A DNA stretch of 4,454 bases, from the IMG/VR virus record IMGVR_UViG_2728369553_000002; one strand, 5' to 3'. The translations under genes were made by a program, and so were the position numbers. The DNA is from a virus (lineage: Duplodnaviria; Heunggongvirae; Uroviricota; Caudoviricetes). Shown here piece after piece: positions 2,540 through 4,454 of this stretch. Within the stretch, counting starts at the first letter, position 1. Each line of letters starts with the position of its first letter. A model generated the notes under the pieces. That model had not been told where the DNA came from, did not search any database, and saw only the letters and a list, made by a program, of their open reading frames with translations.

Positions 2540-3103
2540 CTGTGTCGTCGCTCCGGCTTCAGTGATTTACGCAATTCCCGCGCCAGAAAATAGCGTGTCC
2601 AGCTGCGGTTCTTTTCAAGCGTTTCCATCATGAAGTTATTACGTGGAGCCAGTCGCCAGCCGCTGCCACCGGATGCACCACGATGATGGCTGCGACGACG
2701 CTTTGCCCCTCGCCTCACGCCATAGAACAAAAAAGCCGGATAAAAATCACCAGTGATACGGCGGTTTCCCTCTCCATTACGCTGGTTAGGGGCTATACGT
2801 GCCATAAAACCAGGGCGATGTTTACTGGCTCTGGGTACCATGTAACCAATCGAACGAGCCAGGCGTCCGGTCTGATAACCGGGGTTTTCACCCGGTGCCG
2901 ACCGCGCACGGCGCATCACCAGCCGACGGGNNNNNNNNNNNNNNNNNNNNNNNNNNNNNNNNNNNNNNNNNNNNNNNNNNNNNNNNNNNNNNNNNNNNNN
3001 NNNNNNNNNNACCAATCGTGACAAACGCCCGCCGGACACGGGCGCGGTTAAAGCGCATCTCCGTGGGCTGCTGAAAATCAACGTGCAAAAAGGAAGTCGC
3101 CAT
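2536..3103 (-). CDS. HK97 gp10-like head-tail joining / virion morphogenesis protein, interrupted by an 80-N gap
   Basis: ATG at 3101-3103 preceded by GGAGG at 3109-3113 (5-nt spacer); N-terminus MATSFLHVDFQQPTEMRFNRARVRRAFVTIG. After the gap the frame ending at stop 2536-2538 encodes ...QTGRLARSIGYMV...DFYPAFLFYGVRRG...APRNNFMMETL, resembling the TG-L-SI ... YA-E-GT ... PF-PA pattern of gp10-family proteins. The two sides are in different frames as written, so true gap length and gene length are unknown. Confidence 0.5.
2931..3010. other. Assembly gap (80 N) inside the gp10-like gene
   Basis: Run of N; reading frame differs across it. Confidence 0.95.
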
Positions 3104-3488
3104 TGCTGCCTCCGTGACTCTGCCTACATTCGCCCAGCTCCGTACACTCCAGCAGCAGAAAGCGCCGCGCTCCGTTCAGATCGCGCTGACGTTTCACCCG
3201 GTACACACTGTCACCGCAGACCACCTCATAATCAGAGGTGATCCCCCGGCGGTAACGAATGGTGATGTAATGGGTGATGGCGTCTCCGGTCTGCGCGGTT
3301 TCCTGCCAGGTGGTGGCACTGGTCTGGATAACCTTCGCCCATGTACTGAACGCAACCGGGTATTGAGGCTCCACGCCAAAGTTATCTGCGGGCATATCCA
3401 CCCGCTGGCGGATCAGGACGCGTTTATTCAGTTCACCGGGGTCCGGCAGAATGTAGGTTGCGCTGGTCTGTGCCTGGCTAATTTTCAT
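3078..3488 (-). CDS. Phage head closure / head-tail adaptor protein (Phage_H_T_join-like)
   Basis: 136-aa ORF. Core WAKVIQTSATTWQETAQTGDAITHYITIRYRRGITSDYEVVCGDSVYRVKRQRDLNGARRFLLLECTEL matches the characteristic adaptor pattern (WA-v ... IRYR ... Y-v ... L-L-C-E). Start ATG 3486-3488 overlaps the connector stop at 3485-3487 (ATGA). Confidence 0.75.
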   Translation of the reverse strand: MKISQAQTSATYILPDPGELNKRVLIRQRVDMPADNFGVEPQYPVAFSTWAKVIQTSATTWQETAQTGDAITHYITIRYRRGITSDYEVVCGDSVYRVKRQRDLNGARRFLLLECTELGECRQSHGGSNGDFLFAR

Positions 3489-3808
3489 TGCGGAAAGTAC
3501 CTGTACGGGCTGACAAGCCAGCCAAAACTCTGCGGCATGTCGAGTTTCTCCACTTCCGTAACCGACGAGCGGTTTTCGTAAAAGTGGCTGATAAGCATCA
3601 GCATCCCAAGACGAATATCATCCGGCAGGTGCAGCCCGTCCGGATCGCTGTCCGGAATGGATTCATCCGGTGCATAGAGCTTCCGGTTCAGATACGTTTC
3701 CGTCCGCTTTTGCGCCGCACAGGCCAGCAGTTGCAGATGGCGGTCATCGGCATCGAAATCCTCATCCAGCCGGAGTTGGGCTTTAATCTCTTCCAGTGTC
3801 AGAAGCAT
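3485..3808 (-). CDS. Phage gp6-like head-tail connector protein
   Basis: MLLTLEEIKAQLRLDEDFDADDRHLQLL... is the typical N-terminus of gp6-like connector proteins. I place the start at ATG 3806-3808 (GAGGG at 3815-3819, 6-nt spacer) rather than the track's upstream ATG at 3812-3814, which has no spacer after the Shine-Dalgarno. Confidence 0.75.
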   Translation of the reverse strand: MLLTLEEIKAQLRLDEDFDADDRHLQLLACAAQKRTETYLNRKLYAPDESIPDSDPDGLHLPDDIRLGMLMLISHFYENRSSVTEVEKLDMPQSFGWLVSPYRYFPQ

Positions 3809-4010
3809 TCTCATCCCTCTTTACTGGCCGTGGCTTTTTCTCTTTTGCCGCTTTACTGCTTTTTGCACTGGTTCCGCGCTCTGCTAACCCGGCCTGAAGT
3901 GCAATCTCCTGCACCCGGGCAGGAAGCGCCCCGTCGTCATACTCACCGGCCCGAATGACCTCAACACGCATACCGTCCGGTGACCATTTAAGATCTTGTT
4001 TCAGGATCAT
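3783..4010 (-). CDS. Hypothetical small protein (75 aa) between the capsid and connector genes; function unknown
   Basis: ATG at 4008-4010 with GGGTGA at 4017-4022 (6-nt spacer). Codon usage looks enterobacterial (CTG, AAA, CCG, GGT, CGT). Acidic N-terminal half and a Lys-rich tail (SAKSSKAAKEKKPRPVKR). Its last ~26 nt overlap the connector start in another frame. I recognise no family. Confidence 0.45.
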   Translation of the reverse strand: MILKQDLKWSPDGMRVEVIRAGEYDDGALPARVQEIALQAGLAERGTSAKSSKAAKEKKPRPVKRDENASDTGRD

Positions 4011-4033
4011 GATTCTTCACCCTTCAGAACAGG

Positions 4034-4051
4034 GGGCGCGGAACCGCGCCC
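4034..4051 (-). promoter_or_regulatory. GC-rich stem-loop just downstream of the capsid stop codon (possible partial terminator or mRNA 3' stabiliser)
   Basis: Perfect inverted repeat GGGCGCGG / AA / CCGCGCCC on the plus strand (8-bp stem, or 7 bp with a 4-nt loop), 9 nt after the capsid stop as read on the minus strand. It is followed on the transcript by CCUGUUCUG, not a clean U-tract. Confidence 0.4.
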
Positions 4052-4059
4052 ATGAGCGA

Positions 4060-4454
4060 TTACTTCTCTGCAATCTTCAGCAGTTTGATGGCCTGCGAAT
4101 CGACCAGCATTCCGCCGGTGCGCTTGGTGGTATAAAAACCGACAAACGGTTTATTGGTGTACGGGTCACGCAGAATGCGGGTGCCGATACGGTCAACGAT
4201 GGTGTAACCCCGTTTGAAGTTACCAAATGCGATGGCTTTCGCATCCGCAGCAATATCCGGCATCTGTTCGTTTTCAGCAATACCGTACCCCAGCAGAGAA
4301 GAAGGCTGCCCCAGTTCCAGCCCCGGACGCCACAGATAGTTACCCTCGTTGTCTTTCAACAGACGAATGGCAAACAGGCTGTTGTTGTTCATCATGAACT
4401 TCGCGCCAGTGCGGTGTGCCTTACGCAGCGTGTAAATCAGTTTGATAATGGCGT
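4060..4454 (-). CDS. Phage major capsid protein, C-terminal portion; ORF continues past the window end
   Basis: Stop TAA at 4060-4062. My translation stays open upstream of the track's Met through the window end (...AIIKLIYTLRKAHRTGAKFMMNNNSLFAIRLL...). C-terminal sequence ...RDPYTNKPFVGFYTTKRTGGMLVDSQAIKLLKIAEK and position immediately upstream of the connector gene fit a major capsid protein. Confidence 0.7.
   Translation of the reverse strand, partial: AIIKLIYTLRKAHRTGAKFMMNNNSLFAIRLLKDNEGNYLWRPGLELGQPSSLLGYGIAENEQMPDIAADAKAIAFGNFKRGYTIVDRIGTRILRDPYTNKPFVGFYTTKRTGGMLVDSQAIKLLKIAEK

Follow-up and report, generated by a model that had tools for sequence, protein, structure and literature searches.

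A 75-codon gene between the capsid and connector genes of an SfIV/ST64B-like phage module is a frameshift allele of a small head-module family

The small open reading frame (ORF) between the major capsid and connector genes of this phage DNA is a member of a conserved family whose canonical product is 66 amino acids (aa) long, and its 75-codon form arises from a run of five A residues where the canonical gene has six. We analyzed a stretch of 4454 nucleotides from a tailed phage (IMG/VR record IMGVR_UViG_2728369553_000002), referred to here as the window. With moderate confidence, we favor an overall explanation in which the ORF is a real family gene, is carried here as an A5 frameshift allele, and encodes a low-copy tether used in head assembly or packaging. 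Part of this picture is already on record, as the family is catalogued among phage proteins of unknown function and identical DNA is called a frameshifted pseudogene in RefSeq. What we add is the cause of the odd C-terminus and of the overlap with the connector gene, a three-part protein architecture, a fixed genomic slot, and an analogy with lambda gpFI and Bacillus subtilis YqbF.

The window holds a minus-strand head-neck-tail module of a temperate phage resembling SfIV, SfII and ST64B. The head is of the HK97 type and the contractile tail is Mu-like. Along that strand from 5′ to 3′, the window begins with the 3′ end of an HK97-family major capsid protein gene (4060..4454; Pfam PF05065, E 2.6e-34; stop TAA at 4062..4060), followed by the 75-codon ORF (3783..4010), a gp6-like head-tail connector gene (adaptor Ad1; 3485..3808 in PGAP's coordinates; PF05135, E 6e-11; TIGR01560, E 1e-19) and a head-closure gene (PF05521). 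Further downstream come a gp10-like gene broken by Ns, a tail terminator gene (PF23840) and a DUF2635 gene, and then the first part of the sheath gene. The connector has its own Shine-Dalgarno (SD) sequence, AGAGGGA, at 3820..3814 on the minus strand within the small ORF; PGAP starts the connector at the ATG at 3808, which is conserved in ST64B, and an alternative ATG lies upstream at 3814. Positions 3011–4454 are 100% identical to Escherichia coli ECONIH4, where the capsid gene is annotated as ‘phage major capsid protein’ and the head, neck and tail genes other than the small gene are all intact. A 1055-nt query around the ORF, running from the 3′ end of the capsid gene through the small gene and the connector into the first part of the head-closure gene, found matches in 1263 of the 5426 complete E. 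coli genomes; the same region is 87–96% identical to phages SfIV, SfII, SfI and ST64B. The head module is thus common in E. coli, yet its small gene has no name and is missing altogether from the SfIV annotation.

Several lines of sequence evidence identify the 75-codon ORF as a genuine protein-coding gene and not noise. The first-pass annotation had placed an unassigned 75-aa gene between capsid and connector, directly after a stem-loop and with a plausible ribosome binding site of its own; we recovered the same coordinates and exactly the translation that it quoted, an SD-like AAGGGTGA at 4024..4017 on the minus strand, 6 nt 5′ of the ATG at 4010, and a hairpin at 4051..4034. Compared with ST64B, pN/pS in the ORF frame is 0.083/0.319, and in the other two frames 0.116/0.187 and 0.144/0.096. 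Judged by this comparison, the ORF frame is under purifying selection, and the possibility that the signal belonged to a different frame received no support, as it was seen in the ORF frame only. The frame is also kept in most relatives, which share the slot between capsid and connector.

The earlier statement that the gene could not be placed in a family no longer holds. In a profile search, residues 1–64 of the ORF aligned to positions 1–64 of the 66-position profile PHROG_1020 (E 4.4e-41), and the ORF also matched PHROG_21989 (E 4.7e-16); the function of both PHROGs is unknown. Examples include ST64B Sb7, SfII_07 and SfI_007, which have the same slot, N-terminal domain and basic tail as the window copy. 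A word-index search returned ∼40 clusters from E. coli, Salmonella and E. albertii, dominated by 66-aa clusters of 660, 126 and 32 members. An exhaustive HMM search gave 96 matches, of which the short ones share the N-terminal domain, and a second indexed search gave 89; the long, multi-stretch HMM matches were discarded as artefacts of a WSPDG motif that is common to beta-propeller repeats. The wider relatives are 53–125 aa long and occur in Pectobacterium, Serratia, Klebsiella, Endozoicomonas, Achromobacter and Bordetella prophages. All are labelled ‘hypothetical’, lack a Pfam domain and map to PHROG_1020 or PHROG_21989. Neither Pfam nor NCBIfam matched the ORF itself, and Pfam searched at E values up to 10 with 42 family members returned only noise. 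Likewise, when the family profile was run against PDB sequences, it hit only WSPDG motifs of beta-propellers and glycosidases, all at E 0.15 or worse, which we do not regard as relatives, and a Foldseek search of BFVD gave nothing better than E 0.76.

Family members consist of a folded N-terminal domain of ∼45 aa, a very variable disordered linker of acidic or low-complexity sequence, and a C-terminal polybasic patch. The N-terminal domain occupies codons 1–45 of the window copy (3876..4010, minus strand) and carries the motif WSPDG...AGEY..LPxRxxEIAxxxG. Alignments of 25–42 diverse members give the consensus x-L-x-W-S-P-[DN]-G-x-x-V-E-T-x-x-A-G-E-Y-x(2-4)-L-P-x-R-A-x-E-I-A-x-Q-L-G for this block. 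An AlphaFold2 (AF2) model built from 42 sequences predicts a small beta-sheet whose short strands pack against a helix at residues 31–39, with a pLDDT of 89 over the domain; residues 46–66 of the full-length model fall below 50, as expected of a disordered tail. The mini-fold resembles the bL9 N-terminal domain and the GINS B-domain, which are likewise small beta-sheet and helix folds, with scores below the usual confidence level; the resemblance is generic and implies no functional or evolutionary link. Beyond the N-terminal domain, the remaining segment ranges from 7 to 78 residues across the family. Its linker part is 17% D/E, 6% K/R and 61% P/A/G/S/T/Q, often in PEQ, PEP or EAKAK repeats, and its last 15 residues are 31% K/R. 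At least four K/R residues are found there in 51 of 53 members, typically as KKxKK or GRRRNR. In the window, codons 46–59 (3834..3875, minus strand) encode TSAKSSKAAKEKK, a native, basic and disordered tail with a pI of 10.2 whose patch reads KSSKAAKEKK. The contrast drawn earlier between an acidic N-terminal half and a basic tail is therefore borne out, with pI values of 4.8 for the mildly acidic residues 1–45 and 10.0 for residues 46–75. For annotators, the combination of N-terminal domain, variable spacer, polybasic end and fixed capsid-to-connector slot offers a handle on this family across gamma- and betaproteobacteria.

The window copy departs from the canonical gene near its 3′ end. The canonical product is 66 aa long and ends in KEKK[AS]T[TA]S[KQ]EG, with its stop codon abutting the connector ATG. 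For example, ST64B Sb7 ends in KEKKSTTSQEG, encoded by GAG AAA AAA TCC ACG and onward to a TGA, with the connector ATG 2 nt further on, and the common E. coli form ends in KEKKATTSKEG, encoded by GAGAAAAAAGCC with a run of six A residues (A6). Phages SfIV, SfII and SfI also carry the 66-aa form; we translated the SfIV gene, which is intact but unannotated, and read those of SfII and SfI from their annotated 201-nt coding sequences. The window instead reads GAGAAAAAGCC, with a run of five (A5; 3835..3839, minus strand; GAG AAA AAG CC), as comparison with ST64B, SfIV and IMG/VR alleles makes clear. Translation leaves the native frame after Lys59, and codons 60–75 and the stop (3783..3833, minus strand) form an out-of-frame extension, PRPVKRDENASDTGRD, that ends at a stop codon at 3785..3783 inside the connector gene. 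The ancestral C-terminus, ATASKEG followed by a stop, is still legible in the −1 frame (3811..3834, minus strand); its TGA at 3813..3811 overlaps the ATG at 3814 and lies 2 nt before the ATG at 3808. On identical DNA, the PGAP annotation in RefSeq gives ‘hypothetical protein, frameshifted’ as a pseudogene that corresponds exactly to window positions 4010..3811 and so ends at this ancestral stop.

Because A5 replaces the canonical A6, residues 60–75 and the 26-nt overlap with the connector are both products of the frameshift. The overlap of about 26 nt described in the first-pass annotation is present in the window when counted from the ATG at 3808 (it is 32 nt from the ATG at 3814), but it is not native. 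Similarly, the basic patch of the Lys-rich tail described there is native, but the 75-aa length and the C-terminal PRPVKRDENASDTGRD are not. The odd C-terminus and the overlap are thus properties of one allele and not of the protein. An overlap of this size is not abnormal in itself, since the junction varies naturally: other members show overlaps of 8, 20 and 1 nt, and Serratia has a 17-nt gap.

The A5 form is a minority allele. We tabulated the run in 126 unique 1-kb contexts drawn from IMG/VR and reference loci, a set enriched for A5 by pattern scans. The run is A6 followed by G in 116 contexts, all encoding 66 aa, and A5 in seven, encoding 74–75 aa; ST64B alone has A6 followed by T (66 aa), and two further contexts encode 66 aa but do not match the A-run pattern. 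Forms of the 75-aa type make up ∼3–6% of the alleles sampled. Pattern scans needed filtering, as a 17-nt A5 pattern hit 30 stretches of viral contigs, of which only ∼13 lay in the small gene and the rest were chance matches, and a strict peptide-pattern scan of genome contigs returned just three loci. The seven A5 contexts represent several clearly different backgrounds, and one of them is a single SNP from an A6 allele. The A6 alleles in IMG/VR that end in ATASKEG are 4–5 SNPs from the window allele. A Salmonella protein of the A5 type, P0004, matches Sb7 exactly as far as the run; beyond it, the protein has the tail that we derived by hand from ST64B minus one base. Alleles ending in KEKKSHDQ also exist and would be explained by expansion to A7. 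The occurrence of A5 in several backgrounds, together with these apparent A7 expansions, marks the run as an indel hotspot.

The window allele is also real and heritable: a 90-nt segment with its A5 run recurs letter for letter in 23 complete E. coli records, whose isolates come from human, panda, mouse, chicken and seawater sources. Approximately 790 other records carry divergent alleles of 90–96% identity, and among the matches listed every one of these aligns over 91 nt, the length that A6 predicts. The frameshift itself is mild, exchanging only the last seven of 66 residues (ATASKEG) for 16 out-of-frame residues. Both conserved elements, the N-terminal domain and the basic patch, are retained because the patch lies upstream of the shift, and the extension adds a further PRPVKR. 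The frameshift allele is probably still at least partly functional.

The position of the gene is as constant as its N-terminal domain. In the window, ECONIH4, ST64B, SfII and four distant loci (Bordetella, Endozoicomonas, Serratia and a metagenomic contig), the small gene is flanked by an HK97-type capsid gene on one side and the first connector gene on the other. The distant loci share the order TerL, portal (PF04860), S78 protease, capsid (PF05065), small gene, connector and head closure. Their tails differ: Serratia has a sheathed tail, as does the window, whereas those of Bordetella, Endozoicomonas and the metagenomic contig are lambda-like or otherwise siphoviral. As head order is constant while tail type varies, the small gene travels with the head module. 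The connectors also vary among these loci, matching PF05135 at some and no Pfam model at others, while the head genes stay constant.

A second constant feature precedes the gene. In the window, RNAfold predicts a GC-rich hairpin with a 7-bp stem, GGGCGCG-GTTC-CGCGCCC (4034..4051, minus strand), 8 nt past the capsid stop. Perfect GC hairpins of unrelated sequence occur just past the capsid stop in six of six loci (the window, ST64B, Bordetella, Endozoicomonas, Serratia and the metagenomic contig). Only a weak U-tract follows. These hairpins are consistent with a terminator-like attenuator, or with a 3′-stabilizer, that would set capsid expression above that of the low-copy genes downstream.

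We tentatively propose, by analogy, that the protein is a low-copy accessory of head morphogenesis or DNA packaging that acts as a tether from capsid to DNA. A folded domain, an unconstrained spacer and a conserved polybasic end are what would be expected of a tether with two binding ends, and we prefer low copy because the gene is downstream of the attenuating post-capsid hairpin. In such a scheme, the N-terminal domain would dock on the prohead or capsid side of the head module, and the polybasic end, on its flexible spacer, would be free to reach DNA or else an acidic partner (the terminase-DNA complex, for instance). The contact would be made during packaging or head completion.

The closest functional parallel that we see is lambda gpFI (PF14000). 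Its gene occupies the same slot, as capsid gene E is followed by FI and then by the head-completion gene FII. One end of gpFI reportedly binds the capsid protein. Like the small protein, gpFI is small and non-enzymatic, and its two modules are joined by a long, flexible acidic linker, a likeness of layout. It has been called a packaging chaperone linking terminase-DNA complexes to proheads (PMC4493119, citing Popovic et al. 2012). Homology can be set aside, since Packaging_FI gave no match at E values up to 10 among 42 members and hhalign returned a probability of 0.3%; the fold of the head-binding C-terminal domain of gpFI (PDB 2LSM) likewise shows no similarity to the family. A second parallel is YqbF of the B. 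subtilis skin prophage (PF14553 plus PF21488, YqbF_HeH; PDB 2HJQ). YqbF combines a small domain with an HeH DNA-binding motif, sits between capsid gene and connector in a skin-like element whose downstream genes run in the same order, and shares with the small-gene family a local strand-RAG-x-[VL]P-x-[KR]-helix pattern. Here profile comparison does not support homology, as PF14553 did not match and the hhalign probability was 0.3–0.5%, below 1%; a search for YqbF homologs yielded only eight sequences, nearly identical to one another and too few to build an informative profile. The C-terminal HeH motif was also sought in the small-gene family, where neither PF21488 nor Rho_N matched and the disordered tail has a Lys/Arg cluster instead. 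YqbF is itself without known function, so the resemblance transfers none. We therefore treat gpFI and YqbF as analogs and not as relatives. If the analogy with gpFI is sound, the small protein may be a functional counterpart of that chaperone in HK97-type phages, which have no recognized FI.

The guesses made in the first-pass annotation, that a small protein at this position might be a head accessory or decoration factor or bind nucleic acid, are compatible with these data, except that the position of the gene disfavors high-copy decoration. For the same reason we think it unlikely that the protein is a virion component, whether one that decorates or cements the capsid or one that contacts the DNA inside and neutralizes its charge with the basic tail. 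A head-module gene adjoining the capsid gene could well encode such a component, and polybasic disordered tails are typical of DNA-condensing peptides; the family also has a weak match in BFVD to a protein labelled ‘virion structural protein’ from Achromobacter phage AchV4, which is not significant (E 0.92). However, a place downstream of the conserved hairpin and among low-copy neck genes fits a protein needed in 60–420 copies less well than it fits a catalytic factor or one present in 12 copies, and a linker of 7 to 78 aa would be unusual for a lattice-bound cement protein. Moreover, none of 27 phage records carries a proteomic annotation for the protein, and a literature search found no virion proteomics or cryo-EM for the ST64B/SfIV group.

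It is about equally doubtful that the window copy is a dead pseudogene in a prophage lineage that has lost the function. PGAP's ‘frameshifted’ mark points that way, as do the 66-aa A6 forms of the isolated phages that we checked and the loss of the native termination-reinitiation geometry with the connector. Nonetheless, the N-terminal domain and basic patch are intact, with seven of 66 residues replaced, in a region that is highly variable throughout the family. The connector retains its own strong SD, the structural module is otherwise intact, and the allele persists in 23 records from varied sources. More broadly, where a homopolymer run falls in a short disordered tail, a ‘pseudogene’ call may not signal that function has been lost.

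A neck or portal-vertex factor would help load the gp6-like adaptor onto the filled head, or would use its basic tail to hold the DNA end in the portal channel. The gene does lie immediately 5′ of the connector and is often translationally abutted to it (ATGA or TGAxxATG in the canonical arrangement, overlaps of 1–20 nt elsewhere). We consider this role rather improbable, as connector type varies between loci while the head genes are constant, and the neck set is already complete without the small gene (adaptor, head closure, gp10-like protein and tail terminator).

It is very improbable that the peptide is irrelevant and that the ORF is merely a cis-acting translated spacer that takes ribosomes to the connector start from the hairpin behind the capsid gene. 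The abutting canonical stop and start codons would fit such a spacer. So would a local hairpin in the window (3793..3827, minus strand; −13.7 kcal/mol, z −3.4), which begins 6 nt past the AAG at 3836..3834 and encloses the connector SD and both ATGs, so that upstream translation would open it. But this hairpin is absent from SfIV and from the distant loci, so its significance is doubtful and a conserved coupling device based on sequestering the ribosome binding site is ruled out. The 17-nt gap in Serratia, the purifying selection on the protein, and a confidently folded N-terminal domain conserved from gamma- to betaproteobacteria all argue against a spacer as well. Finally, although the window is a composite scaffold of low quality, with N runs and a duplicated segment, and homopolymers are error-prone, we reject faulty sequencing or assembly as the reason for the missing A, given the 100% identity to ECONIH4 over 3011–4454 and the exact A5 allele in the 23 complete-genome records, which come from unrelated projects.

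The A5 run has one further property. In the zero frame it reads G_AAA_AAG, which recalls the −1 slippage sites of the dnaX/IS911 type (A_AAA_AAG): the local hairpin follows 6 nt on, and the −1 frame restores the native tail. It differs from those sites in having G as its first base. The A-site shift from AAG to AAA would be ideal, but re-pairing of the P-site tRNA, from AAA to GAA, would be imperfect. Slippage in the A5 state may yield the native 66-aa protein beside the 75-aa form, and it would alter the arrival of upstream ribosomes at the connector start. Although it is tempting to see the run as a contingency site, a reversible population switch that tunes the head-completion step, we regard this as quite improbable. 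Relatives do not keep the slippery arrangement: in 116 of 126 contexts the run is A6, which puts the heptamer out of frame, and the hairpin lacks conservation as well. To judge from these sequences, the arrangement is a by-product of the mutation that is absent from the canonical A6 gene. Incidental low-level slippage is nonetheless plausible on the sequence of the A5 allele, and A-rich DNA of this kind encodes basic peptide in more than one frame.

Beyond the A5 allele, in which contraction of the A6 run by one A shifts the C-terminal frame, the A-rich tail region of the small gene carries further indels in other alleles (P0015, P0041, P0007 and P0038), some of whose tails end in SHDQ. One form, SAKAVKRQKKKATTSKEG, is apparently doubly shifted, and in another allele the shifted tail of the ORF runs on into a connector-like N-terminus (MLLTMEEI...). 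We infer that this A-rich DNA remains Lys/Arg-rich in several reading frames, so that frameshifts leave the tail basic. Comparison of the family members P0024 and P0047 indicates that P0024 is a recombinant: residues 1–33 match E. coli members, the remainder (AEEIATELGIIKFGGGG...PEPEPEP...KTK) matches a different subfamily, and the junction falls inside the N-domain helix. The family profile additionally matches long proteins (P0052, P0056, P0058 and others) via many short stretches. These matches are caused by the WSPDG motif, which PD40/WD40-type beta-propeller repeats share, and were rejected as spurious and no sign of homology.

Phage SfIV carries the small gene intact as a 66-aa ORF (KC814930/NC_022749, 5624–5824; positions 744–944 of the SfIV locus L243), and it is unannotated in both the GenBank and RefSeq records.

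An entire prophage with the A5 allele is deposited as the circular, 37,667-bp ‘plasmid unnamed3’ of E. coli CX04 (NZ_CP081716.1; L246). In this record the integrase adjoins a dusA fragment, and the ‘plasmid’ is apparently the prophage captured as an excised circle. The record suggests that a prophage bearing the A5 allele is still able to excise. Many frameshift calls occur throughout the record, consistent with a low-coverage long-read consensus.

Upstream of the small gene, a perfect GC-rich hairpin (window 4051..4034, minus strand) lies a few nucleotides past the capsid stop codon. A perfect GC-rich hairpin occupies the same position in all loci examined (the window, L002, L236, L238, L239 and L240), including distant beta- and gamma-proteobacterial loci. 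The stem sequences are unrelated between loci and the U-tract that follows the stem is weak; conservation at this site is of structure, not of sequence. This pattern therefore suggests a partial terminator or an mRNA 3′ stabiliser that sets the capsid:neck expression ratio. Downstream, the connector has two in-frame ATGs on the minus strand, at window 3814 (MRMLLT...) and 3808 (MLLT...). The ATG at 3808 is conserved in ST64B and is the start chosen by PGAP, whereas neither holds for the ATG at 3814, which forms an ATGA overlap with the small gene's native TGA stop.

The window itself is a composite scaffold whose pieces are parted by three N runs (1292–1301, 1682–1691 and 2931–3010). The tail terminator, DUF2635 gene and sheath start are duplicated within it (857–1681 versus 1693–2601, 97–98% identity), whereas E. 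coli ECONIH4 has a single copy of this segment. The duplication looks like an assembler joining of two related prophages, or of haplotypes.

Several of the head modules that carry the small gene have another conserved small gene as well, located after the one for the large terminase and before the one for the portal. Its product (YmfR in E. coli) is 60–82 aa long, and the gene lies at 6124–6306 in L001, 671–862 in L239 and 628–876 in L240.
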